64,000 nt of DNA from Octopus vulgaris (taxonomy: Eukaryota): contig OX597833.1 of NCBI GenBank assembly GCA_951406725.2, positions 48,794,001 to 48,858,000 on the forward strand. Reading direction: 5' to 3'. This document shows positions 44,501 to 64,000 of the stretch, piece by piece. The translations under genes and the position numbers were made by a program. Under the pieces are notes generated by a model. The model was not told the origin of the DNA and made no database searches. It saw only the letters and a program-made list of their open reading frames with translations. Within the stretch, counting starts at the first letter, position 1. Each line of letters starts with the position of its first letter.

Positions 44501-44611
44501 ATGGCAGGTGCTGCTATCCGTATGTCGCCCGCAGAAATAGAATTTCTTGCGGAGAAGGAACTAATTTCATTTGAACCTAATTTTACATATTCTAATATTT
44601 ATTTAATCCAA
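44501..44611 (+). CDS. GINS2: GINS complex subunit 2 (PSF2) exon 1
   Basis: M..MSPAEIEFLAEKELISFEPNF...IYLIQ|gtaagt. The start could be the ATG at 44522. Confidence 0.92.
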
Positions 44612-44739
44612 GTAAGTCGATCGTTGTCGTTTTGTTTTTCTAGATTATTTTGTTAACAGGATAAGCGTTTTTCTCTTTTCCTCTATTGAAGAAATACTCG
44701 TTTCCAGCGACTTAGCAATCAATAAATAAATTAATATAT

Positions 44740-45020
44740 AACAATTGCAGCGTGGAAGTTGTTTGTAAACCATTTAAGAAACACACACAAGCCGTTCGAT
44801 TCACTTCAACATTTAAGTTTAATTTGACAAAATATTTTCGTCGCTTTAAGACCGCGACCGGTTCACTGACAAAAATCCGTGCTGCATCTGTCAGTGAACA
44901 GGTCGCAGTCTGAAAGCGACGAAAATATTTTGACAAATTAAACTTAAATGTTGGAGTGAATCGAACGGCTTTTGTGTGTTTTTTAAATGGTTTACAAACA
45001 CCTTCCACGCTGCAATTGTT
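44740..45020. mobile_element. Fold-back element with ~130-bp arms, each carrying a hammerhead-like motif
   Basis: Arms 44740-44871 and 44889-45020 are near reverse complements. A single-arm relative lies at about 3662-3791. Confidence 0.85.
44889..44935 (+). ncRNA. Candidate G3-C8 variant hammerhead ribozyme
   Basis: tgtca GTGAACA G GTCGC agtctgaaa GCGAC GAAA ATAT TT tgaca: 5-bp stem I, 5-bp stem II, palindromic AATATT stem III. Confidence 0.65.
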
Positions 45021-47416
45021 TTCGTTCCAGCACACGATCTCAGATCAAATTACTTGCTATGCGAGTACATCTCCGAAATGAATATTTAATTATTTTTTAA
45101 AAGGAAATTAAATGAGGGAAAATAAGTAATCTTTTTTGATAAATTTGCTATTTTTTTCTCCCCGAAAACCATTAAAATGTTATAATTTCGTAAATTTACT
45201 GACGAAGGTAAAGAATACGCACACCATCTTTTTCGGCGGTTAGGGATAGGGTTACGTCGAAGATGGGGGTGGCGTGCATATTCTTTACCTCCACCAACTT
45301 ATTTATGTGGGCCCTTTATTGTTATTACTAACGATTGATTTTAAATTCAATATTGACATTTTATGAACTCGGGTGTTAATGAAACGGTTTTGCTGTTTAT
45401 ATAAATTCTAAGTGCATTTAAGTTATAAATTCGACGGGAGATCACTCTAATGTGTTCCAGCATGTTTGAGAAAACCTCAAAAATAGTCCTGGGCGGGGGT
45501 CGGTGAACCGGGTTAAATTACCCCTAGTGGGGTAAAAATAATATTCTTGGGTGTAATAAAGATTCATTAAACATAAATAAAATTTTATATATAAAAAAAC
45601 GTGATCCTTGTTACGATAGCTATTTTTCTTCTGGCATCCAATGTAATTGGACGTGGAATAAGATAAACTCAATAAATCTTTTGAATTCATAAAAAATCTA
45701 TGATTTTCTTCCTTTCAAATCCAGGATTTAACGTCGGCGTAAATAAATATATTGTGGGGTAAGTAGTTAAAGAATTTCCCCGACCTCTGGTCTTGGGCAA
45801 ACTGTGGCCCGTGTGACTTTCTAAATGGCACGCCGACGAAAAATTATTTTCAGTGTGGCCCGCCTGATGACGAGCCATTTCTCATGCGATCTGCTTTTCG
45901 AAAAATGTTGTACGTGCCTACAAACGGTTGCTCAGTCTACTAGAAATCATAAACAAACCGAGATTTTCTATTCAGATGTAGTAAAAAAAATATTTCTTTA
46001 TATCTTCCGTTTGTGAAGTTACAGTGTTTTGCTTAAAAAACTTACTGTGGACAAAGCTGCGTGACGGTCCTTTACTTGTCTCTCCTTATGTGTTTACTTT
46101 TTTACCACTCGTTGGTGATGTCCTGTTCTTATTGTAGATTTTTTGGTATTTTGTCCTGTACTTATCTATCGTGAGTTTACGTATTTTTCACTCGTTGTTG
46201 ATGTCCTATACTCGATATATTATGTATATATATATATATGTATTGTATATATATATATATATGAATTATATATATATATATGAATATATATATATATATA
46301 TATGAATTATATATATTATATATGAATTATATATATATATGATATATGTATTTATATATATCTGGCAGTAACGTTAGCGCGCCGGGCGAAATGCTTAGCA
46401 GTATTTCGTTTGTCCTTACGTTCTGAGTTCAAATTCCGCCGAGGTCGACTTTACCTTTCATCCTTTCGGGGTCGATAAATAAAGTACCAGTTTCGCACTG
46501 AGGTCGATGTAATCGATTTAATCCCTTTGTCTGTCCTTGTTTGTCCCCTCTATGTTTAGCCCCTTGTGGGTAGTAAAGAAATATATATATAGAAGCAGGA
46601 GTGGCTTTGTGGTAAGTAGCTTGTTTACCAACCACATGGTTCCAGGTTCAGTCCCACTGCGTGGCACCTTGGGCCGACCAAAGCCTTGTTTGGATTTGGT
46701 AGACGGAAACTGAAAGAAGCCCGTCGTATATATATATATATATGTGTGTGTGCGTGTATGTTTGTCCCCCTAGCATTACTTGACAACCGATGCTGGTGTG
46801 TTTATGTCCCCGTCACTTAGCGGTTCAGTAAAAGAGACCGATAGAATAAGTACTGGGCTTACAAAAGAATAAGTCCCGGGGTTGAGTTGCTTGATTAAAG
46901 GCGGTGCTCCAGCATGGCCACAGTCAAATAACTGAAACAAGTAAAAGGGTAAAGAGAGTATATATATATAAGTCAATATAGAAAATGATAAAATAGTTTT
47001 ATAAAAAGCATTTCAGTACTGATTTCAGTCATTGAGACTTTTTTCAACTGTAAGTATGGAAGAAAAATTTTGGAAAAATTAAAAGAAAAATTTTTTTTAA
47101 AAGAATATTTGCATAGTGTTCAAATACAAGTGGCATTTTCCTTGTTTCTACCTGTCTCTGTCTCTCTTGTTTACTCTTGTGGGTTCGAGGTCATATCATA
47201 TATATATATATATATATATATGATAGCTAGTTAGATTAGATTAGTCAACATAGGCGTAGGAGTGGTTGTGTGGTAAGTAGTTGCTTACCAACCACATGGT
47301 TCTGGGTTCAGTCCCACAGCGTGGCACCTTGGGCAAGTGTCTTCTACTATAGCCTCGGGCCGACCAAAGCCTTTTGAGTGGATTTGGTAGGCGGAAACTG
47401 AAAGTATACAGTTGAA

Positions 47417-47457
<41 letters not shown>

Positions 47458-47657
47458 TGCGGTTTAGGGTTCATAAAAATCATACATTGTTATGGCAGAA
47501 TACTGGTATAATGTAAAGAAGCTTGCTTCCCAACTACATGGTTCTGGGGTTAGTCTCACTGTGTGGTACCTTGGCCAAGTGCCTTCTATAACCTTGGGCT
47601 GACCAAAACCTTGTGAGTGGATTTGGTAGACAGAAACTGAAAGGAGCCCATCTTGTA

Positions 47658-48020
47658 TCTCTCTATATATAAACGGCAGTTTGTCTGTGCGTGTTTCTGT
47701 GTGTCTGTTTGCTTGTACCCTCACCCTGACCACGGCTTTCAACCGATTCTGATGAAACTTGACACACGCATAGCCCAATGTCATAATTCAAAACTAACGC
47801 AGCGAAAATTTTGAAAAGTTCCCCCAGTTCTGAAAAAATCGATAAATTCGACATGGGGTCCAGAATCAGAAACACAAACTGTCTAGGGGACGCAACTCCA
47901 CCTTTTTTAACTAAAAAAAAATTTACCATCATTTTTTTCCATTTTTTGGCTATAACTCTCTAAAAATGCTTTATAGTTATTTCCCTTACAAACCTGAGCA
48001 ACGCCGGGCGATACTGCTAG
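47658..48020 (+). mobile_element. Non-autonomous Helitron
   Basis: a|TC start and CTAG|t end; the 3' ~120 bp is shared with 1657-1963. Confidence 0.75.
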
Positions 48021-48118
48021 TAAACACATAAATGTGAAACAAGGTGGAAAAAAGAGTATTCAAATACCAGAGGTAGAGTAATATGCTTTATTTAAAAGCA
48101 GCAGAAATTTAACAAAAG

Positions 48119-48156
48119 CTGTTACTCGGAGTTTCATGTTCCCATTCGTCGGACAG
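48119..48156 (-). ncRNA. Candidate C4-variant hammerhead ribozyme inside an inverted repeat (48081-48222)
   Basis: Minus strand reads ctgt CCGACGA atg ggaa cat GAAA CTCCGAG TA acag. Confidence 0.6.
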
Positions 48157-51100
48157 TTCAGGAATGTGAAACTCCGAGTGACAGCTTTTGTTAAATTTCT
48201 GCTGCTTTTAAATAAAGCATATAGATAGATAGATATAGATATATAATCAATCGATGGGCAATATGTTGTGCTTGAGAAGACCTGTTGAGTCAAGTGAAAT
48301 CCTTGTTGTGGCTGATGCCAGTACTGCCTGACTGGCACCCGTGCCAGTGACATGTAAAATGCACCATTTGAGTGCTGTCGATGCCAGTGCTGCTGGACTG
48401 GCTCCCATGCCAGTGGCATGTAAAAAGCACCATTCGAGTGTGGTTGATACCAATGCCTGACTGGCCCCCATGCTGGTGGCACGTAAAAAGCACCCACTAC
48501 ACTCTTGGAGTGGTTGGCATTGGGAAGGGCATCCAGCTGTAGAAATCTTGCCAGAACAGATTGGAGCCGGCTGCAGCCTCCTGGTTTGCCATTCCTCAGT
48601 GAAACCGTCCAACCTATGCCAGCATGGAAAGCAGACATTAAATGATGATGATGATGTGTATCTGAGTGTGTGTGTCTATGTGCCGGTGGCACATAAAAAG
48701 CACCTTCCGATCGTGGCCGTTTGCCAGCCTTGTCTGGCACGTGTACTGGTGGCACATAAAAAGCACCATCCGACCGTGGCCATTTGCCAGCCTCACCTTG
48801 CACCTGTGCACTCACTACACTCATGGACTGGTTGGCGTTAGGAAGGGCATCCAGCCGTAGAAACACTGTCAGATCAGACTGGGCCTGGTGCAGCCTTCTG
48901 GCTTCTCAGACCCCAGTTGAACCGTCCAACCCATGCTAGCATGGGAAACGGACGTTAAACAATGATGATGATGATGATGTCCTTCCATCACTGCTTGACA
49001 ACCGGTGTTGGTCTGTTTATGTCACCTTAACTTAGCGGTTCAGTGAAAGAGACTGATAGAATAAATACTAGGCTTAAAAAATAAGTTTTGGGGTCAGACT
49101 GTTTGACTAACAACCTTCAAGGCGGTGCTCCAGCATGGCTGTAGTCAAAACACTGAAACGAGTAAAAGAATAAAGTATGTTATGGGAGTTGTGTCTTTCA
49201 ACTTTATTTTCTTTCAGATCCACTGTACGCTTTTATTTTGTTACTGTTTATTCATTTCAATCATAAGACTGTGGCCATGCTGGGGCTCCACCTTGAAGGA
49301 AGTTTAGTTGAATGTATCAACCCCAGTTGTTATTTTTTTATAAGCCTGCTACTTATTCTATCAGTCCCTTTTGCTGAACTACCAAGTTACAGTGATGTAA
49401 ACACCCCAGTACCACTTGTTAAGCAGTGGTGGTGGTGGTGGTAGTAGCATGGGAGTGGTGGTGCAAGCACAGACATAAAGACACACACACACAGATATAT
49501 ACATATATACGACGGGCTTCTTTCAGTTTCCACCTACCAAATCCACTAACAAGGCTTAACAGACTGAATACAGCATACTCTTTTATTTGTTTCAGTCATT
49601 TGACTGTGGCCATGCTGGAGCACTGCCTTTAGTTGAGCAAATCGAGCCCAGGACTTATTCTTTGTAAGTCTAGTACTCTCATTCTATCGGTTTATTTTGC
49701 CGAACCGCTAAGTTACAGGGACGTAAACACATCAGCATCGGTTGTCAAGTGATGTTGGGGGGACAAACACAGACACAAACGTATACACACACACATATAT
49801 ATATACATATATACTATGGGCTTCTTTCAGTTTCCACCTACCAAATCCACTCGCAAGGCTTTGGTCGGCCTGAGGCTATAGTAGAAGGCACTTGCCCAAG
49901 GTGTCACACAGTGGGACTGAACCTGGAACCCTGTGGTTGGGAAGCAAGCTTCTTACCGCACAGTCGCACCTGTGCCTAGTTGTTTATATTTTGATCAAGA
50001 GAATTGCTATACAAGATGTGAAGCTTGTATTTCTGGTTGTGCTGTTTTATTTAACTGATCAGCCATCAGGGTGGCACTCCACTGCTATGTTTTTGTTGTC
50101 ATCCACTTGTTGCAAATAGCTGACAGGTGGGATAAAAGTGAAACATTTCTATGTTTCTTAAATATATTTCGGCTCGGGCATGGCTGTGTGGTTAGGGAGC
50201 TTGCTTCCTAACTACATGGTTTCGGGTTCAGTTCCACTGCGTGTTACTTTGGGTAGGTGTCTTCCGCTATAGCCCCGAGCCGACCGGAGCTTTGATTGAA
50301 TTCGGTAGGTGGAAGTTACTGCCGTGTGTGTATGTGTGCATATAGCTGCTCAGTGCCTCTCTGAAAGAGAGAGAGAGAGGAAGACACATATCATGTATGG
50401 GTTATGTATGCTAAAGTAGCTGATATAACAAGATGTGACCTTCCCCCACATAGCTGCCAATGTACTGTAAGCAGTTTTTCATAAGTTTGTGTTAACCATC
50501 TGCGATAGGACCCCCTTCGGTTAGGAATGACCATGGGATTGCATCTAGGAAGTTGCCACAAATGTTATCCAAGGGAAAGGCAAGGGCTGATACAGCTTGG
50601 CACCAGTGATGTTGCAATTCATTTCTACGGCTGAGTGAACTGGAGCAACGCGAAATAAAGTGTCTTGCTCAAGGACACAACATGCAGCCCAGTCTGGGAA
50701 TTGAACTCACTATCTCATGATTGTGAGCCTGATGCTCTAAAAGCTGAGCCATATGCCGATAACTTGGTTTGTCTTGATATTTTAATACCTATTTCTTTAC
50801 TACCCACAAGGGGCTAAACACAGAGAGGACAAACAAGGACAGACAAACGGATTAAGTTGATTATATCGACCCCAGCGCGTAACTGGTCCTTAATTTATCG
50901 ACCCCGAAAGGATGAAAGGCAAAGTCGACCTTGGCGGAATTTGAACTCAGAATGTAGTGGCAGACGAAATACGGCTACGCATTTCGCCCGGCGTGCTAAT
51001 GTTCCTGCCAGATCGCCGCCTTCATATTTTAATACCAGTATCAGTTATTGTGTTGAAGAACTTGTGAGTATTTCTGCGAAATTTGGTGAAAATCTGTGTA

Positions 51101-51771
51101 GCCATTTTCCAGTAATTTTGCAAATACCCAGACAAACAAGGACAAGTGAATACAATACCCTACTTTTGCTTACGTGCAGAGGGTAACAGATAGTTTTTAA
51201 CATAACAAATTAACGAAACACAGAAAAATCCCTATCCTTTGATTTTTTTATACATTTCAGCCATAAAGCTGTGGCCATGATTTTATTCAACATATTTCCC
51301 CTCTTAGATTCACACACTTACTGCAGCAGACATTCAGTTTTTCTAAGCCCTGTAAAAGAATTCAGAAGGTTGGGCTTCAGCCAGGCCTTTTCAGCGAGTC
51401 CACTGCCCTAACCACTGGGCCATTGCACCTCCACAATTTATTGTATATAGAGTTGGTAATTGCTATGCTAATTTCTACGGTGGGGCTTTGGGTAAAAGAA
51501 AACACAGGAGTATCAGTTAATTATGATTTTATTCAACATATTCCACTCTCAGAATCATACACTTATTGCAGCAGTCCTTCAGTTTTTCTAAACCCTGTAA
51601 AAGAATTCAGAAGGTTGGGCTTCAACCAGGCCGTTTCAACAACCATTTTTATATATTTATAACAATTGTATTCAGGCTGATACAATTTTGCTACTATTTC
51701 TTGCTTGTTGAGTAACTTCATGTAATAAAAAGCATTGTGTACTATTTTTTTTCTTCTTTTTATCTACATAG

Positions 51772-51886
51772 GGTGATTTTGGTCCTTTTGAAGCTGGAAT
51801 ACCAACTTCAGTTCCTTTGTGGTTAGCGGTAAATCTAAAACAGAGATGTCGTGGTCGAATTATTCCTCCAGCATGGATGAATATAG
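51772..51886 (+). CDS. GINS2: GINS2 exon 2
   Basis: catag|GGT GAT TTT..G|gtaaag; [38 protein letters not shown]. Confidence 0.93.
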
Positions 51887-54009
51887 GTAAAGGATTTCTC
51901 TGTTGATATCAAGATGCTTATACAATACCTTTTTGTGTTTTTATATACTTTTACTTTTTTTACTTTTTAATTGTTTCAGTCATGTGATTGTCGCCATGCT
52001 GGAGCACCGCCTTTAGTCGAGCAAATTGACCCCCGGACTTATTCTTTGTAAGCCTAGTACTTATTCTATCGGTCGCTTTTGCCGAACTGCTAAGTTATGG
52101 GGACGTAAACACACCAGCATCGGTTGTCAAGCGATGTTGCGGGGACAAACACAGACACACAAACACACACATATATATGTACATATACATATATACGACA
52201 AGCTTCTTTCAGTTTCCGTCTACCAAATCCACTCACAAGGCTTTGGTCAGCCTGAGGCTATAGTAGAAGACACATGCCCAAGGTGCCACGCAGTGGGACT
52301 GAACCCGGAACCATGTGGTTTGGTAAACAAGCTACTTACCACACAGCCACTCCTATATTTTAGGTTTTTTTTCTTTTCTGATATAGGTTGGGCATATCTG
52401 CTGCAAATCTAAATAATTAGGGCAAAGCCTTTGATTTGAAATCATTGCTTTCAGAATATAAACCATGAATCTTTTCTCTTTCTCTGTATTAATTTTATTA
52501 AAAGATTATCAAGAATCTTTTTATTTTTACGGTGGCACCTTGGGCAAGTGTCTTCTACTATAGCCTCAGGCCGACCAAAGCCTTGTGAGTGGATTTGGTA
52601 GACGGAAACTGAAAGAAGCCCATCGTATATATATGTGTGTGTGTATATATATACATACATATATGTATGTGTGTGTATATGTTTGTGTGTCTGTGTCCCC
52701 CCCCCCCCCAACATCGCTTGACAACCGATGGTGGTGTGTTTACATCTCCATAACTTAGCGATTCGGCAAAAGAGACCGATAGAATAAGTACTAGGCTTAC
52801 AAAGAATAAGTCCTGGGGTCGATTTGCTCGACTAAAGGCAGTGCTCCAGCATGGCCACAGTCAAATGACTAAAACAAGTAAAAGAGTAAAGAGAGTACAG
52901 AGTATTAGATTATTATAACCTCAAATACAAAACACTGACTAGTAAGTAATATATGGTGGAAAATTGTGTTTTTTCTTTTAAAGAAAGAACTAAAATTAAG
53001 AATTTTATTATGAAAAGCCTTTTGGCTTTATCCAGTAAAATACTTTTTCTTTAACCTTTTAGCATTCAGATTAATCTAACAAATGTAATGCTTATTGATT
53101 TACATTATTTTGAATTCATCATGCACTATCATATAGTTTCGAGATTTCGATGATATGACTGTTTATTTTAAAAATGACATTGTAGGATAGGTGTGAGAGG
53201 TCAAATCTGGCCAGTTTGAACATAAAACAGGTAGAATATTTTGGCCAGTTTGAATGCTAAAGGGTTAAACAGCATTAACCCAGATAACACATTGTTCTTT
53301 CAAATTTCAATGAGATAAATCTGCTTGATGCAAAGATATCATTGTTTGTTCCTTCTTGAGCCATGCTCGGCTCATAAGGGCCGGTTTCTTGGCATATAGG
53401 TTCCCCACCTGGACGGGACGCCAGTCCATCGCAGGTGAGCTGCATGATGCAGGAGGAAAGAGTGAGGAAAAGTTGTGGCGAAAGAGTCAGCAGAAGTTTC
53501 GCCAATACCTTCTGCCGGAGCCGCGTGGAGCTTAGGTGTTTTGCTCATAAACACACACATCGTCCTGTCTGAGATTCGAACCCGCGATCCCTCGACTGTA
53601 AGTCCGCTGCTGTAACCACTAGGCCACGTGCCTCCACAAAGATATCATTGCTTCTGCATGAAGCTAAAAGGCTCTCTGAAGGAATTGATAAATTTCCATG
53701 TCCAGTCTGTTTCATTATTTCACTGTTGGTTACTGAAAGTAAATCTGATAATTGGAACCAATGCAGAAAATCCTTTATGTTAGTGAATTATTTCTGCAAC
53801 CAAATGTTTTTATTTGATATTTTTTAAAACTTCAACTTCATCTCAACATCCTTTTATAATGAGACTGGTACCTCTCTGCCTTTCCAATATCCTGAAGTAT
53901 CTTAGATTTATTACCTAGAATTTACATCAAAAGCACTTGAAGTTTTAGAATTTTATAAAGCCAAAACAAGCAGAGATCATGATTTGGAAAACACATATTT
54001 TACTTATTA

Positions 54010-54460
54010 TAATAATAATGAAATTATTGTATGCGGTGCTCAGGTGCACCACAACTTGTCAAAAGTGAGTATAAAGCATATACAGTAATGTACAAATGTT
54101 TGGAAAGTGAACAATGTATGAGTCAGATACATGCTTGCGTGTATATGAAGGGGAGAAAATCAGGTGTAGTGTTGGCAAATCTCAGGAAGCATGGAAGTTT
54201 TGAAGGATGCAGTGCTCCGACAACTAACAACTGAAGCCGGCAGTTTGTTCCATGCTTCAGCAACTCTTAGCGTGAAAAAATGTTTCCGAAAGTCAGGTGA
54301 GCTGTGCTGTTTTCTGACTTTGTAAATATGTCCACGGGTGTTAGACAGGTGGAGTTTGAAAAGGTGCTCAGAGTTATTGTTTGTAAGATGGTTAATAATT
54401 TTATGGGTGTCTGCCAAGTCAGCTGTCAGACGTCAGAGTTTCAATGTATCCATGCCTAAA
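54010..54460 (-). mobile_element. CR1/L2-type LINE 3' fragment
   Basis: NTRGHIYKVRK..FRKHFFTLRVAEAWNKLP C-terminal motif, then a 3' UTR and (TTA)n tail. Confidence 0.75.
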
Positions 54461-55369
54461 ATAAATATTTAATCCCAAAATAAAGATAATTATTGCAAAT
54501 ATTGGGACTGGAGTGAAAAATGGTGCCAGTTTGTTGAATGAGTTTATTGTAAGTAACTATCTAGAAGAAAGTTGGCCAGATAATGAAGTGAGAAAAACTA
54601 GATTGCATTTATAAGAGAACCTGGTTAGGATGACCAACATATTCTGCCTGATTGATGTTGTCCAAACCTTTTTCTCTCTAAGAACTGTGTCACTCTTCCA
54701 GAATTTCTCCTTTCACTGTATAGGGTTCCATGTTATTTTCCATTAGGACATCTTGACAAATTTGTTGCTACCATTTGTTTTTGCTCTTGAGCAGAATTCA
54801 TCAACAACATCATTTTTGATGGCACCAGCTGCCATTAATTTGAATTTCTTGAAAGGCTTGGCAACCTTGGCTTTTGTTCAACACTCAACTTGACATTGTT
54901 GGGCCATCTTCCTCACAGCTTTACACTTATCCATAAGGTTCTCCTTAACGCATCTGAGCCTTTTGTGGACTGTGGCTTCAGGATGGCAGTGGCTTTTTCA
55001 GCTCACAATGACATCGGTGTCCTCCGGGATGCAGTCAATCAGTACTACCGAACAATATCAAATGTGGTTTTACCAATACAAGATTCAATGATGCCTTAAT
55101 GACCAACCCTCATCTGGCTGCCTCTGGACTGCCTCAGAATCAGACAGCACACCTAGCATAACTTGTAGCCCCTTTTTTTGACCAGCTCAAAGATAAAGAA
55201 AAAATTCAAAGGGGCAACCTTATTGTACATTTTGTCACACCAATTCTACTTTTGAAGTGTGTCTGTAGAATACGTAAGTTGTTCAGTTGTTTGAACAAGT
55301 GAAATATGTATTCATCATCAAGTATGGCAAAGGGTCTATTTTCTCAATTGTTTTTATCTCCTGTGTATA

Positions 55370-55413
<44 letters not shown>

Positions 55414-55454
55414 TAAATGAAAGAATGGAGTCGAACGAAGATGTTAACAAAATT

Positions 55455-55547
55455 CCTTTACTCTCGACACATGTTTCGAATACAGCATTTTCTCATTCCA
55501 AAGGAATAAAGGGTGCATTATGCAATCTTCTCATCAGGAAAGAAAGG
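55455..55547 (-). ncRNA. Candidate type I hammerhead ribozyme with fully canonical core
   Basis: Minus strand: cctttctttc CTGATGA G..(long stem II)..C GAAA CATGT GTC gagag-t-aaagg. GUC cleavage triplet (C at 55466); 10-bp stem I with one bulge. Confidence 0.75.
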
Positions 55548-55988
55548 GAGCCTCTCTCGACAACAAGATAAACAAAAATTTCGATGATATATATATATTT
55601 ATTTATTTATTTATTTATTTATTTATTTGTATGTAGGTATAGATGTATGTAGATGTGTGTGTGTGTAGATCGTTAGCCACTACACACATTTTTTTTCTCT
55701 CCTTGTTTTTTCTGTAGAAGAGCGTAGGCTCGAAACATAAAAGACTTTTTCTATTCCTGAGCGTTATACTAATACATCTGTTTGTTTTGTACATCACCCG
55801 TCTTCGTTTTTTGTTTTTTTCGTAAACTCTCCCTATATATCACACGCTCACGTGGTCACGCTTGTTGATCCTGTCATTTCTTACCACGCACGAACTTCTC
55901 CACTGGACTCTCCATCTACCCTTTTACAGATTCTCGTTTGGATATTTACCCTCTGGCTGCACTTCTCCTACATATGGATCACTGTGGA

Positions 55989-56092
<104 letters not shown>

Positions 56093-56097
56093 GTATG

Positions 56098-56148
<51 letters not shown>

Positions 56149-57044
56149 GTATGTATATATATATATATATGTATGTATTGATAAAACGGTAAGATAACAA
56201 AAGAAAGAAAGAGACCTCAATATTATGTAAATAGAGGAAATTTATCTATACAATATGTTACATTACTCGGTAGTCAAGATAAAACTCCGAGTTTCAGATG
56301 CCGAAGTGGAAATCCACAACACCATCCCTTCGACCATCTGGCTATTTGAAAACGTTATGAAAAAATACCGTTAAAAATGAAGGGAAATTACTCTGTTATA
56401 ACTCTGCTTTGCCTGCGTACTTACCCTTTATTCCTGCATGAACAGCTGTTCTCCTCTTGTGTTTCCTGCATGCTATGATTGACTATGTTTTTAAAATTGG
56501 TAGTTGAACTAAAACTAATTCCCAAATTGTGTCCATTGAAGAGTTTCCCACAAGCATGGTTAACTGGAAAATGTCCATCTATCAGTGCTAGGAAACATTT
56601 ACCCACATTGAAGGCCACCCCGGGTGAGCAAGGGGGCGCAAACCAGATGACCCTCCCATTTCCACCACTCCCCCTCCCTACCGTTGGGCTGGCGATAGGT
56701 GTATATTCCACCTTTTCGCCAAAACCACTATCTTCCAAAGCTTTATTACAAACTGGGGCAACGCCACCGAAGATGTCCCCACCAGATGAGAGGCCAGAAA
56801 TCCTCTTACTAATACCCTTAACCAAATCCTTGAACACCACAGGGGGATGGCATGAACCTACATTAATATAACTTAGTCTATCATTGGGCTTCCTATAAGG
56901 CTTATAAATATTATTATTAAGATCTAAGGAAACGTCTAAGAAATTGACAACCGTCAGGTTAGTGTCTATAGTTATACTAAGTCCGAAGTGTTTCATTAAC
57001 TGGATAATATCCTTCCTAAAACGATCTTGTGCTGGTCCATTTGT

Positions 57045-58587
57045 ATCAACCCAGCCAAGTCAGAACTAGGGATTATTAGCAAAGAAATTTTAGATAAAAT
57101 AAATACGAAAATTAAGACCGATACTAGGCTAGTGCAATGGTCCAATAGTATAGAAGTCGTAGACTGGTTTAAAGCTATTAAGAATAAGAAAAAAGCGAGG
57201 TTTACACAATTCGATATTGTTGATTTTTATGCCTCTATCTCTAAAGAACTGCTAGATAAAGCCCTAATCTTCGCTAGTGACTTCATAGAAATTAGTACCA
57301 ATGATAAGGATATAATCTTCCATGCTAGAAAGACATTACTTTTCAGTGAGAATGCAAAGTGGGTAAAAAACACAGACACGGAGGGCGCTTTCGATGTGAG
57401 CATGGGTTCATATGATGGGGCAGGCATCTGTGATCTAATTGGACTCTTTCTCCTAGATACCTTCGGTAAGACATTCCCTAACGTACATTTCGCCATCTAC
57501 AAAGATGATGCCCTCGCCTTAACAGCTAATACAAATGGACCAGCACAAGATCGTTTTAGGAAGGATATTATCCAGTTAATGAAACACTTCGGACTTAGTA
57601 TAACTATAGACACTAACCTGACGGTTGTCAATTTCTTAGACGTTTCCTTAGATCTTAATAATAATATTTATAAGCCTTATAGGAAGCCCAATGATAGACT
57701 AAGTTATATTAATGTAGGTTCATGCCATCCCCCTGTGGTGTTCAAGGATTTGGTTAAGGGTATTAGTAAGAGGATTTCTGGCCTCTCATCTGGTGGGGAC
57801 ATCTTCGGTGGCGTTGCCCCAGTTTGTAATAAAGCTTTGGAAGATAGTGGTTTTGGCGAAAAGGTGGAATATACACCTATCGCCAGCCCAACGGTAGGGA
57901 GGGGGAGTGGTGGAAATGGGAGGGTCATCTGGTTTGCGCCCCCTTGCTCACCCGGGGTGGCCTTCAATGTGGGTAAATGTTTCCTAGCACTGATAGATGG
58001 ACATTTTCCAGTTAACCATGCTTGTGGGAAACTCTTCAATGGACACAATTTGGGAATTAGTTTTAGTTCAACTACCAATTTTAAAAACATAGTCAATCAT
58101 AGCATGCAGGAAACACAAGAGGAGAACAGCTGTTCATGCAGGAATAAAGGGTTGTGCCCGCTGAATGGAGCTTGCATGTCCGGGACCATCATGTATGAAG
58201 CTACCGTAGACTCTATGGCCACTAAGGACACCGTTTCGACGAGGAGGTACGTGGGCCTGACAGGGTAATTTCAAGGCCAGGTTCAATAACCACACTTTGA
58301 GCTTTAGGCACTGGAACAAAGGAAAAGCGACACAATTATCCAATCATATTTGGTCTTTAAGAGATAAAGGTGTCGATTATAACATACAATGGAAGATTTT
58401 GGCCAGATGTAAGCCCTATACTAACGGCAGCGGAGGGTGCGGTTTGTGCGACATGGAGAGATGGCTTGTCTGGAGGGGCAGCTTGGACCCTACCGCATGT
58501 CTAAATGCAGGGACGGGGCTTTTCGGATCATGCCCACGTGTGACTAAATTTCTGTTACGTTTTTGGTCCCCTAAAGAAAACGGATAG
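57045..58587 (+). pseudogene. PLE reverse transcriptase / GIY-YIG ORF, frameshifted near 58262-58270
   Basis: FDIVDFYASI, MGSYDGA, YKDD, NFLDV, HPP; linker CSCRNKGLCPLNGAC; YVGLT..FKARFNNH; C.LC..E. The CxCx5C linker suggests the Naiad group (inference). Confidence 0.88.
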
Positions 58588-58776
58588 AACATGCTTTCTG
58601 TGTTATGTCCCAAGAAGATTTTATATATTTTTATATGTTTTTATATATTTTTATGTATTTTTATATAATTTTTATGACGAAAAATGCGAGCGATGTGTAA
58701 GTACGCAGGCAAAGCAGAGTTATAACAGAGTAATTTCCCTTCATTTTTAACGGTATTTTTTCATAACGTTTTCAAA

Positions 58777-58850
58777 TAGCCAGATGGCCGAAGGGATGGT
58801 GTTGTGGATTTCCACTTCGGCATCTGAAACTCGGAGTTTTATCTTGACTA
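58777..58850 (+). ncRNA. Hammerhead-like motif in the PLE terminal repeat (second copy 56271-56344, minus strand)
   Basis: agatgg CCGAAGG GATG..CATC T GAAA CTCGGAG TT ttatct. The core deviates from canonical at positions 4 and 9. Confidence 0.5.
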
Positions 58851-58907
58851 CCGAGTAATGTAACATATTGTATAGATATATATATATTATGCGTGTATAT
58901 GCACATA

Positions 58908-59300
58908 TGGAGGCGCAATGGCCCAGTGGTTAGGGCAGCGGACTCGCGGTCATAGGATCGCGGTTTCGATTCCCAGACCGGGCGTTGTGAGTGTTTATTG
59001 AGCAAAAACACCTAAAAAAGCTCCACGAGGCTCCGGCAGGGGATGGTGGTGATCCCTGCTGTACTCTTTCACCACAACTTTCTCTCACTCTTACTTCCTG
59101 TTTCTGTTGTACCTGTATTTCAAGGGGCCGGCTTTGTCACTCTCTGTGTCACGCTGAATATCCCCGAGAACTATGTTAAGGGTGCACGTGTCTGTGGAGT
59201 GCTCAGCCACTTGCACGTTAATTTCACGAGCAGGCTGTTCTGTTGATTCGGATCAACCGGAACCCTCATCGTCGTAACCGACGGAGTGCTTCCATCCATC
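58908..59300 (+). mobile_element. tRNA-derived SINE (ggaggcgcaatggcccagtggttagggc.. family)
   Basis: tRNA-like head with A/B boxes and ccatcc tail. Related copies at 1-75 (3' end), about 11157-11468 (-), 22245-22552 (-) and 53345-53636 (-, TSD caaagatatcattg). Confidence 0.85.
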
Positions 59301-59402
59301 ATATGCACGATACATGCCTTTGTATGTTATTTAATAACTTCATACTTTAAATTCTTACTGATCAAAAATTTCACTTGGAAATTTTTTTTTGACGTGTTTC
59401 AG

Positions 59403-59502
59403 ACGACCTTAATTTGAAAAAGCAAGAAGAACTTGAGAGCAAACTCTTCACAGAAATGCCATCTCGATATTATATTGAAATAACACAACTTCTGCTCAAA
59501 AA
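59403..59502 (+). CDS. GINS2: GINS2 exon 3
   Basis: tttcag|AC..AA|gtaagt, 100 nt; DDLNLKKQEELESKLFTEMPSRYYIEITQLLLK. Confidence 0.92.
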
Positions 59503-60985
59503 GTAAGTCACTTTGGGTTCATTAACAGTTCTTTAGATTCTGCCTTGAATCATGTTGAACATTTTAGTGTGCAATTTTGTGTGCATCTAGAATTATAGGA
59601 AATGTTGACAAGGAAACCTAGGCGAAGTCAGTTTTGGCAAGGTTTTTACAGCTGGATGCCCTTCAGAACGCCAACCACTTTACATTGCGGACTGGGTGCT
59701 TTTAAGTGGCACCTGTGCTGACAGGGTCACCAAGTACTTGCAAAACAAAAGCATAAATGCTAAACTGTTATACTACACTTTGCCAATTTTTGATATCTTG
59801 GCATCTGAAGCAGCTGGAGATATGATAGTTTGACTAAGAGAACTGACTATTGCAAGCAAAAATAAATATTGAAAAAAACGCATTTGGCCAATTTTGGACA
59901 TACAACAGTTTAACATAATAGCAACAAGTGTCATAGTCTTGAATTAGTGTATCTTGCACTTCAGTCTCTCAGTTATTCTGCCTCTTATCTCTCTTGATAA
60001 GACAGCTCCAGGTTTCATTTCATTTCATTTGAGTTTGAGTCCATGCTCAGGCCAAGTCGAAGACTCCACCCTCAGAGTCTGGTGTGGTTGCCAGGTTGTA
60101 TTCTCTGTTTAATTTTGACATGTGTAGGAGCGAGTTTGAGTCAGTTTGTGCTCGTTGTGTATATCCTGGGAGATGGGGTTCATCTCTAATGGTGCTTAAG
60201 TATCTATCCAGCAGGTTTAATGATACAATCTACCTGTTTTTAAAATGATCTAAAAACATCCCATCAAAAGTTAATTTTATTTATGAGAGGTTACTGAAAA
60301 GTTCCTGGCTTTGGGTAAAAGAAAGTACAAAAGGATCTGCTAATTATGATTTTATTCAACATATTCCCCTCTCAGATTCACACACTTATTGCAGTGGTCC
60401 TTAAGTTTTTCTAAGCCCTGTAAAAGAACTTGGAAGGTTGGACCTCCAACCAGGCCTTTCACAATACCCTTAAAGCCAGAAACTTTTGAGTACCCTCTCT
60501 TATATTCTAAACATCAGCTTAATAACGGTTTCGAATTTTAGCACAAGGCCAGCAATTTCAAGGTAGTAGGTAAATCTATTACATTGAACCCAGTATTCAT
60601 CTGGTACTTACAAACATTAAGACAGACGAAATGCTGCTAAGTGCTTTGTTTGAAATGCTAAAGATTTTGCCAGCTTTTTTAAACCATCAGCTTAATAATA
60701 ACAATAGTAAATCTTAGAGTGACTTATAAACAGTAGCTGCAACACATAGGGCACAGAAAGTGTGTCTAAAGCCAGTTGGAGGAGGTGTCCTCCTGGGGCT
60801 ACAAACTACAGTAGCATCCACCCTTAGGGGTTAGCCATATTTAAATGGCAAATATACGTTAATAAAGACAGTTATTTTACTAAATTCTTTGTTATTTTCA
60901 AGATTAATAGTAACAAAATATTGTAACAAAAGGGTTAAATAGCAAACATAACTATGGTTAATAAATGATTTTGCTCATGTTTCAG

Positions 60986-61112
60986 TGCTCCTGAAGATAT
61001 CCCCAAAGCTGATGAACTACGAACTCTTATTAAAGACATCTGGGACTTGCGCAAAGCAAAATTACGAAGCAGTATTGATACTTTCATCAAAAGTGATGCC
61101 ACACATGCTAAG
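60986..61112 (+). CDS. GINS2: GINS2 exon 4 (the final exon lies beyond the window)
   Basis: tttcag|T GCT..AAG|gtaact, 127 nt; APEDIPKADELRTLIKDIWDLRKAKLRSSIDTFIKSDATHAK. Confidence 0.93.
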
Positions 61113-61542: not shown

Positions 61543-61824
61543 TAGTATATAGAGTCGGTAATTGCTATGCTGATTTCTATGGTAAAAGAAAACACAGGAG
61601 GATCAGTTAATTATGATTTTATTCAACATATTCCCTTCTCAGATTCACACACTTATTGCAGCAGACCTTCAGTTTTTCTAAACCCTGTAAAAGAACTCAG
61701 AAGGTTGGGCCTTCAACTTGGCCTTTTCAGCAACTATTTTTATATATTTATAACAATTGTATTCAGACTGATACAATTTTGCTACTATTTCTTGCTTGTT
61801 GAGTAACTTCATGTAATAAAAATC

Positions 61825-62190
61825 ACTTGTGCTGGTGCCACGTAAAAAGGTCCTGTGCTGGTGCCACGTAAAAAGCTCTTGTGCTGGTGCCACGTAAAAA
61901 GTCTTTAGTGTCAGTGCCACGTAAAAGGCACTCATGTCGGTGCCATGTGATAAACACTTGTGCCAGCATAATGTAGAAAGCACTCATGCCAGTGCCATGT
62001 AGAATACACTTGTACTGGAGCCATGTAAAAAGCATTCATGCTGGTGCCATGTATAAAGCACATGTGCCGGCACCATGTGAAAGGCACACATGCTGGTGCC
62101 ATGTATAAAGCACCATGTGAAAGGCACACGTGCTGGTGCCACATAGAAAGGACTCACGCCTGCACCACATAAAAAGCACTTGTGCTGGTG
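61825..62190 (+). repeat. Expanded ~25-bp gtgctggtgccacgtaaaaagcac units inside a SINE (similar array at about 37270-37550)
   Basis: Directly visible degenerate tandem units preceding the SINE body and (GAT)n tail. Confidence 0.8.
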
Positions 62191-64000
62191 CTGTGTACCA
62201 AGCACCCAACACGCTCTGTAAAGTATTTGGTGTCAGGAAAGGCATCCATCTGTAGAACTCACACCAAAACAGACAAATGGAACCCAGACAGCTGGCCAGC
62301 TCCTGTCAAACTATCCGATCCATGCAGGCATGGAAAACAAACATTAAACGATGATGATGATGATGATGACTGATTGTCCCTTAAAGTTATATAATCTCTA
62401 CTGAAGATCTCGTCAATGATATAAAAAGCTTTTTACTACATGAGAAAGTCAAGCTCACTTATTATTGTTTAGTCCCAAATTAACCTTGATCAAACCATGC
62501 CAGTCTTGAACATCCCACCTCTGTGTATATGTGAAACTACATTAATGAATGTGTCCATTTGTTTGTTAAGATGGTGAGGTGTAATGTGAGATTTGGCTGC
62601 TATTTCTTGCTTGTCGAGTTAACTTCACAGTGGCTTGCTTCCTTTGTTAGCTCCTCAAACTCTTTTACATAGGAAGAGAAATCAATACAAAGGTTAAACA
62701 CAAGATCATCATCATCATCGTTTAACGTCTGCTTTCCATGCTAGCATGGGTTGGACGATTTGACTGAGGACTGGCGAACCAGATGGCTGCACCAGGCTCC
62801 AATCTGATCTAGCAGAGTTTCTACAGCTGGATGCCCTTCCTAACGCCAACTACTCCGAGAGTGTAGTGGGTGCTTTTACGTGCCACCGGCACGAGGGTCA
62901 GTCAGGCGGTGCTGGCAACAGCCATGCTCAAATGGTGCTTTTTATGTGCCACCTGCACAGGAGCCAGTCCAGCGGCACTAGCAACTACCTCGCTCGAATG
63001 TTTTTTCATGTGCCACCAGCACAAGGATGTTAATGAAAATTACCAAAGTAGATTTTTAGAAAGTGTTGTGAGTTAAATAAAGGAATAAGACTGTTTTGTA
63101 AAAGAGGAATAAAATGCTTAAAGATGCGTGAAGCAGAGTGTTTTAATGGGGCCTGTGGTAGATCATAGAAAATTTGTTTCTATAGATTCTATCTTTTATA
63201 TTTAACCTTTTGCTTGTTTCAGTCATTGGACTGTGACCCTGCTGGGGCATTGTCTTAAAAACTTTCGCTGAACAAATTAACCTCATACTTATGTTAAGTC
63301 TAGTACTTATTTTATCAGTCTCTTATACCAAACTACTAAGTTACCAGACCTAAACAAACTAGCATCAATTGTCAAGTGAAGGTGGAAGACAAGCACAGGC
63401 ACATAAACATGTGTGAGTGTGTGCCGGTGGCACGTTAAAAGCACCAACCGATCGTGGCCGATGCCAGACTCCCCTGGCACCTGTGCCGGTGGCACGTAAA
63501 AAGCACCCACTACACTCGCGGAGTGGTTGGCGTTAGGAAGGGCATCCAGCTGTAGAAACACTGCCAGATCAGACTGGAGCCTGGTGCAGCCCCTGGCTTC
63601 CCAAACCCCGGTCGAACTGTCCAACCCGTGCTAGCATGGAGAATGGACGTTAAACGATGATGATGATGATGATGATGATGAGATTCTGTCCTGACCCAAT
63701 CACAAATGGAAAAGTGGATATTAAATGATGATGATGATGAGTGAACTCCCTTGACCTTTGTCTTCCTAGTCTCATCCACAATGTATCTGGGTAGTGCAGA
63801 TAGGTCGCTATCATCACAGCCAAGGAGCTCTGACTACGACCCTGCTAGACAGATGTTCTGAATCAAACTAGTAATCCATCTCTCCGAAAGATTTACAGTG
63901 TGGTTGCCTGGTCACAGACGGCGAGCTGGCAGAACCATTAGCACGCCAGGCGAAATGCTTAGCGGTATTTCGTCTGTCGTTACGTTCTGAGTTCAAATTC

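Follow-up and report, generated by a model that had tools for sequence, protein, structure and literature searches.

Probable ADAR-hyperedited Penelope-like element RNA fixed in the germline DNA of Octopus vulgaris

Clusters of A>G changes which are attributed to ADAR and were fixed by reverse transcription have been described for retroviral proviruses, i.e. those of Rous-associated virus (RAV), avian leukosis virus (ALV), bovine leukemia virus (BLV) and the human and simian T-lymphotropic viruses HTLV-2/STLV-3. In the parts of the reports considered here, nearly 50% of the As are given as changed in an inverted repeat region of avian viruses (PMC12925331), and three BLV proviruses with at least seven A>G changes in about 70 bp are listed (PMC8025556). 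These retroviruses are exogenous, the changes are found in infected cells and the tracts are short. Here, we describe a 64,000-nt stretch of Octopus vulgaris DNA (contig OX597833.1, positions 48,794,001 to 48,858,000 of the forward strand; this whole stretch is called the window and its coordinates are used throughout) with a Penelope-like element (PLE) copy of comparable pattern. In contrast to the proviruses, the PLE is an endogenous, non-long-terminal-repeat-type (non-LTR-type) element of an inherited genome, the window copy is present in two samples and, including a second PLE copy, tracts reach 1.3 kb and 272 changes.

Strand-biased and germline-fixed copies, found by comparison with sister copies, are also known from APOBEC-edited LTR retrotransposons and endogenous retroviruses (PMC4866542; PMC2873906). 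According to the available text of these papers, G>A changes were introduced there on the complementary DNA (cDNA) by a DNA deaminase, whereas both PLE copies carry A>G changes with an ADAR motif. ADAR hyper-editing of double-stranded RNA (dsRNA) formed by repeats resembles the PLE pattern in its clustered A>G changes, depletion of 5' G, preference for 5' U/A and inverted-repeat substrates, and is reported to be highest in octopus, as far as the excerpts of PMC5625713 and PMC9989829 go; it usually concerns RNA only, whereas the PLE pattern is in DNA. A literature search gave no ADAR-hyperedited retrotransposon copies in a germline genome, which is no proof of absence since it covered mostly titles and abstract openings, without supplements. 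The published APOBEC screen is described, in the sections at hand, as covering LTR elements, with a filter for G-to-A and not A-to-G changes and with invertebrates as negative control (PMC4866542; PMC2873906). Sense A>G clusters were thereby filtered out, and a simple genome screen for such clusters against sister copies could reveal comparable fossils widely.

A>G changes and neighbor signature of the window copy

The PLE insertion of the window is 2.7 kb long (56173-58881), lies next to a (TA)n run and consists of a long arm and an inverted short arm (Table 1). Element positions, marked R, refer to one natural family copy of 2555 nt, the reverse complement of locus L003. When window positions 57047-58860 were compared to 29 near-full-length family copies, each comparison gave 89-92 A>G changes, 1-2 C>A changes, a 2-nt gap and few private changes. 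At 89 sites, the first at 57735 and the last at 58833, the window has G and at least 28 of the 29 copies have A; a 90th candidate site, 57894, is a family polymorphism and was excluded. The other changes against the family majority are one shared C>A and the 2-nt deletion, without any T>C and without any G>A, i.e. without the sense G>A signature of APOBEC. For unedited copies, A>G accounts for 57 of 429 private changes; against this background share, 89 A>G among 90 substitutions correspond to a log10 p of about -76. None of the 236 As upstream of the first edit is changed, and in the gap between the two dense tracts 1 of 65. To determine polarity, homologues of the PLE protein were used (1181 found by protein search): among the best 120 distant homologues, the A-form residue is the commoner one at 50 of the 54 changed codons, thus A is ancestral.

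An initial annotation, made from the window letters, had claimed that the 3' half of the PLE switches to G over 57715..58570. The switch is real, with 89 A>G changes against one other substitution and A in the family at the changed sites, and 83 of the 89 edits fall inside the claimed span; six are beyond it (58637-58833). The peptides which it quoted as altered are SSNEDIFNS, PVYNKAL, RKRNNRNRKVIWFTPPYS, GKYFL and NGSGRCGLC at the same places of L003, and distant PLE proteins favor the A-form residue at most of the changed codons, in agreement with its supposition.

The edited fraction within 57735-58833 depends on the 5' base (U 35/107, A 41/139, C 8/76, G 5/66; chi2 p = 1.9e-05), and the depletion of 5' G which the annotation predicted is significant (5/66 vs 84/322, Fisher p = 0.0006). 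A 3' G is favored (29/79 vs 60/309 for the others, 15-22% per base; p = 0.002), and positions -2 and +2 are without effect. When the dense tracts of the window and of the second copy are pooled, the fractions are 135/197 for 5' U, 156/258 for 5' A, 30/132 for 5' C and 27/119 for 5' G, so that 5' C is as low as 5' G; for 3' G it is 90/147 vs 39-51% for the other 3' bases. The metazoan ADAR motif agrees with this neighbor pattern, and the 5' G depletion is likewise reported for hyper-editing, each as given in the accessible portions of PMC9989829 and PMC5625713, respectively.

The exact G form was found in contigs of the sequencing runs X1 (2023) and X2 (2018) for 57801-57951 (25 edits), and in the X2 contig also for 57712-57822 (16 edits). 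Both runs are from different samples and studies; the run kind was guessed as DNA, and each match covers part of the stretch. Of 24 runs listed, X1, X2, X21 and X22 entered this comparison, and X4-X19, with small word shares, were set aside. Presence of the G form in two samples points to the germline, and an assembly artefact is unlikely.

A second hyper-edited copy and the template of both arms

A search with the edited tract led to a second head-to-head insertion, named C16 (G000:C16:17276227-17279727; L061:3728-7228). Its long arm (R60-2555) carries 272 A>G vs five private other changes, its short arm 99 A>G. The tract structure is similarly sharp: 2 of 284 As are changed before, 266 of 473 within R786-2101 (56% over 1.3 kb) and 4 of 131 after the tract. 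The 5' neighbor bias is alike (p = 5.5e-14; 3' neighbor p = 0.085) and outgroup proteins favor the A-form residue at 147 of 166 changed codons. The window copy and C16 differ at family site 2108 and are independent events. In R1422-1935, they share 58 edits, and 59 and 11 are private (odds ratio 6.6, beyond chance); such correlated sites would be expected if one enzyme with given site preferences acted in two independent events.

Hyper-edited copies make up 2 of 61 sites from similarity searches. Among 59 further loci, which follow genome order and include one overlap with an earlier site, no hyper-edited or intermediate copy was present; the probe used to pick this sample would have excluded T>C-edited copies. 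Four single-site sense-G probes matched the window and C16 insertions only, the edited-region search gave no third copy at 100%, and two probes for antisense (T>C) copies had no match compared to 824 arms at the denominator probe. With this 31-nt probe, the first 100 arms represented 72 sites, hence about 590 insertions cover the probe position. The rate of hyper-edited copies is then about 2/590 (~0.3%), which is a lower bound, since one probe missed the known C16 copy. Low-level editing of ordinary copies was rejected, as A>G shows no excess among the private changes shared by both arms (3/16 and 1/13). Locus L141 was also rejected as an edited copy; it is older and diverged, with 9 A>G and 12 T>C of 54 changes. 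As a separate observation, one A>G at R2204 is common to the two arms of L078/L079 (G000:C7:68265475-68270964). R2204 is edited in the window copy and in C16 as well; the change is possibly one inherited edit, or chance.

The initial annotation had stated that both inverted arms carry the same changes relative to the element's sense strand and that these do not follow the host gene strand. Both statements hold: the arms agree at 60 of 60 edits in the window and at 99 of 100 in C16, and the left arm of the window shows T>C on the host strand. Furthermore, 26 window edits are located in the part without a partner arm, and the paired part has no edit in its first 206 nt. An origin of the edits in the hairpin now present in the pre-mRNA of the host gene GINS2 was therefore rejected, because it predicts opposite polarity in the arms and cannot reach the 26 unpaired edits; the edits predate the insertion. 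For ordinary insertions, the arms agree at 137/141 and 164/167 polymorphic comparisons (301/308) and have 16 and 13 private changes (29) in common. Both arms appear to descend from one edited molecule. Only the edited strand has inosine to be read as G, so that A>G changes in the sense orientation indicate a sense RNA as the probable template. The C16 copy, the template strand and the single template are points beyond the initial annotation.

For head-to-head junctions, self-priming on an antisense template was proposed in PMC3846280, with the question left open; two initiation sites and two-strand extension are described in PMC11167929, and the origin of the inverted arm is left open in the relevant passages of PMC8557442 and PMC11167929. 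The window arms overlap only partly, with R731-1215 exclusive to the long arm and the tail exclusive to the short arm. The one-armed tail and the non-nested arms fit a single RNA that was primed twice, which accords with the portion of PMC11167929 considered; the same arm structure also fits fold-back on a longer cDNA which was trimmed later. In C16, the arms differ at one site, with G in one and T in the other, in agreement with an independent reading of inosine, but another A>T is common to both arms.

Fifty-four codons are changed in the window copy, nine of them at positions conserved in at least 80% of the homologues, among which are the E of the endonuclease and the histidine of CxH. For C16, these numbers are 166 and 36, including three aspartates of motifs A and C of the reverse transcriptase (RT). 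These aspartates are catalytic in RTs. An additional lesion of C16 is a nonsense A>T in both arms. The earlier suggestion that editing may disable the element stands insofar as conserved RT and endonuclease residues are changed; against it, the window copy is also truncated and frameshifted, C16 also has the nonsense change, and ~0.3% of the insertions are concerned. Hyper-edited insertions would be a rare by-product of dsRNA surveillance and are not a major route of transposon control, whereby edited RNAs lost before insertion would be invisible in genome counts.

Origin of the edits and alternative explanations

It is highly probable that an ADAR-hyperedited sense PLE RNA was reverse transcribed into germline DNA. 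The proposal of the initial annotation that edited element RNA was retrotransposed, making ADAR editing heritable, is thus supported by the substitution spectrum, ancestral A, depletion of 5' G and the G form in two samples. A sense PLE transcript would have been partly double-stranded. As the majority of the family insertions are head-to-head, its partner would most likely have been an inverted arm at the source locus or else an antisense transcript. ADAR would have deaminated a third to a half of the duplex As in a germline cell, and the family RT, in cis or in trans, would have primed at the (TA)n target and read I as G. That one RNA would have given both arms, either because it was primed twice or because its cDNA folded back and was copied, and a 3-nt microhomology would have joined the arms head-to-head. 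The outcome would be a dead copy recording one editing event.

Several points weigh against this explanation. The source duplex was not found: 0 of ~120 loci examined combine the window haplotype with an inverted arm that starts near the first edit. The light editing of the last 330-450 nt in both copies is not predicted by a plain head-to-head source hairpin. The number of events is two, and each probe tests one site and needs an exact match elsewhere, so that C16, although known, escaped one of them. The assembly may derive from the sample of X1, the kind of X1 and X2 was guessed, and the raw-read runs X21 and X22 gave 0 and 2 fitting reads, too few to judge. Finally, invertebrate hyper-editing prefers A on the 3' side according to the available part of PMC5625713; here, G is mildly favored at this position.

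Concerning the duplex, the tract ends are sharp and head-to-head junctions are present at 48 of the 61 sites from similarity searches, and a matching source locus was not found. Three candidates were rejected. C28 (L025/L096) has an inverted arm from R1419, three bases before the first edit, and differs at sites 1892 and 2108. L153 has an arm from 1423, differs at 2108 and is truncated. C21 (L002) has the window haplotype and full length, and its inverted arm begins at 2118, six bases ahead of tract 2; for tract 1, the 20 kb on each side contain no partner. Given that about 100 arm starts are spread over 2555 nt, coincidences of this kind are expected, hence no source is claimed. The 3' end is spared in both events, with 4/131 (C16) and 6/94 (window) As changed (p = 7e-33 and 2e-08 vs the dense tracts). 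We hypothesize from these two events that the PLE protein protects this end or that an intact recognition region is under selection; source geometry is a rival account.

Among the alternatives, an antisense RNA template with self-priming is considered very unlikely; ADAR or another deaminase would then edit the nascent sense DNA strand of an RNA:DNA hybrid. It would yield the same strand and possibly the same neighbor bias, an antisense template was proposed for head-to-head junctions (PMC3846280), and, for retroviral hybrids, an action of ADAR on the DNA strand is named as an open possibility (PMC12925331), each in the text portion considered. Such a hybrid would span the whole copy, yet the edits begin and end sharply inside, with 0/236 and 2/284 upstream As changed, and a density of 56% corresponds to that of long RNA duplexes. 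DNA-strand editing by ADAR is also much slower than RNA editing. Slightly less credence is given to error-prone reverse transcription due to deoxynucleotide imbalance, or to an unknown single-strand DNA adenine deaminase. Clustered changes of one type can come from reverse transcription, as in retroviruses, and ADAR is the putative enzyme behind the edits. The strong bias for 5' U/A over C/G with nothing at -2/+2 and the recurrence of the same sites in two independent events argue against this; in addition, identical arms require that A:C mispairs at up to 56% of the As arose in a single error event on the first strand, and an intermediate state was seen in 0 of 59 further loci.

Equally improbable is that ADAR editing is right and the single-RNA inference fails, since the arms match by later gene conversion or since an edited parent gave two RNAs. 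Conversion between inverted repeats can occur, the assembly may lack a parent, and 7 of the 308 polymorphic arm comparisons disagree. Conversion would have to account for matches at 60/60 and 99/100 sites, in the window across two separated short-arm pieces, whereas arms elsewhere retain their own differences (92 in 31,670 nt, 42 sites); for an edited parent, edited-tract searches and probes found no sister copy of the window pattern, the C16 pattern being covered by two probes. A sequencing or assembly artefact at the long palindrome is hardly credible. Palindromes assemble poorly, according to the relevant part of PMC8557442, and raw reads yielded no check of the locus; however, the G-form contigs are exact in two samples of different studies, the two arms carry the changes on opposite chromosome strands, the changes reach outside the palindrome, and dozens of similar palindromes are clean.

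With an ADAR-hyperedited sense RNA as origin, the window copy would directly show that RNA editing has become heritable in the nuclear genome of an animal, and would document the action of ADAR on transposon RNA in the germline; the edits would serve as a natural molecular barcode of the PLE cycle, which is poorly understood. On balance, we lean towards a wider proposition: non-LTR-type retrotransposons let A-to-I editing leak into animal germline DNA at a frequency sufficient for a searchable class of ADAR fossils, PLE fossils settle the sense template and the one RNA for both arms, and the edit-poor 3' 330-450 nt are an RNA region which must stay unedited or be shielded by PLE protein for insertion.

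Insertion anatomy, PLE family and host gene

Table 1. Positions of the features discussed, in window coordinates.
Feature	Position	Strand	Details
Host gene GINS2/PSF2	44501..61112	+	PLE in the intron between second and third coding exons
(TA)n microsatellite target	55992..56178	.	Left side; right side is a short TA-rich sequence; target-site duplication not resolvable
Inverted short arm	56173..57046	-	R1216-1839, then R2384-2555, then tail
Short-arm tail	56173-56239	-	End of inverted short arm
Short-arm edits	56288..56840	-	T>C on + strand; 56/56 and 4/4 edits in common with long arm; one arm-specific C>T
Short-arm internal deletion	Counterpart of 58153-58696	-	2-nt GT microhomology
Head-to-head junction	57044..57046	.	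3-nt TAT microhomology
PLE long arm	57044..58881	+	R731-2555; 5'-truncated, without tail; RT C-terminal part, GIY-YIG endonuclease, 3' region
Long-arm open reading frame (ORF) pieces	57000-58268, 58261-58587	+	From ORF list
Dense A>G tract 1	57735..58247	+	69/202 As
2-nt deletion	58261..58262	+	Frameshift in endonuclease; not A>G; missing from 29/29 family copies
Dense A>G tract 2	58435..58538	+	R2124-2227 of the element; 13/31 As; hits R519G, E521G, H528R (543-aa L003 numbering), conserved endonuclease residues
Sparse 3' A>G	58637..58833	+	6/94 As: 58637, 58697, 58786, 58787, 58794, 58833

The inverted arms are 100% complementary across 624 nt (56423-57046 / 57529-58152) and 99% across the 185 nt of the second piece (56240-56424 / 58697-58881). 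Splicing as the origin of the left-arm deletion was ruled out, as GT-AG ends are absent on both strands.

Judged by its motifs, the family is a young, endonuclease-containing (EN+) PLE of the Hydra clade, a clade of C-terminal EN+ PLEs defined in PMC8557442. The translations carry RWK, DKT, a CxCx5C linker and no Cys between GIY and YIG (no CCHH); the endonuclease has CxxC and CxH near the conserved E/N, and insertions target (TA)n. The family resembles the clade, as described in the available text, in its (TA)n targets, inverted 5'-truncated copy and one-sided tail; an edited copy is not among the elements described in that part of PMC8557442, whereas the window family has two. A 717-aa frame is open in 9 of 21 near-full-length arms, i.e. 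a single ORF with RT (YKDD motif) and C-terminal GIY-YIG. The GIY-YIG Pfam match on a family copy is weak (E = 0.008, below cut-off), and the two window ORF pieces have no Pfam match. For a hammerhead ribozyme, there was no Rfam match in L001 or L003 and a core regular expression on one tandem locus gave no convincing fold; the Rfam matches obtained were dismissed as TA-repeat noise. The family is young, since arms of the same insertion differ at 92 of 31,670 nt across 42 sites. Of 24 head-to-head insertions which are visible in full, 22 have the tail at exactly one of their arms.

Up to four near-full-length copies are arrayed in tandem at L106 (G000:C1:57208670-57218669), L130 and L158, which are likely the family's source loci. 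The runs X21 and X22 have X1's species label and 1.9 Gb each, yet 0 and 2 reads fit this family of ~800 arms; their samples may lack the young PLE burst or be another lineage. On the locus of C16, L061:175-2915 is a 2.7-kb (CATC)n array with long stop-free frames and is not a gene.

The host gene was identified by the exon 60987-61112, which matches PSF2 residues 103-144 (E = 5.8e-13). Regions near 44501-44611, 51772-51890 and 59404-59503 are presumably further GINS2 coding exons, placed by short motifs and with approximate ends. The GINS2 intron now holds the perfect 624-bp inverted repeat, and the GINS2 pre-mRNA is predicted to form a long duplex, which would be an ADAR substrate today. Downstream, the window contains a degenerate 26-nt tandem array (61793-62202), akin to a repeat resembling short interspersed elements at 48325-48804 and 63420-63507.
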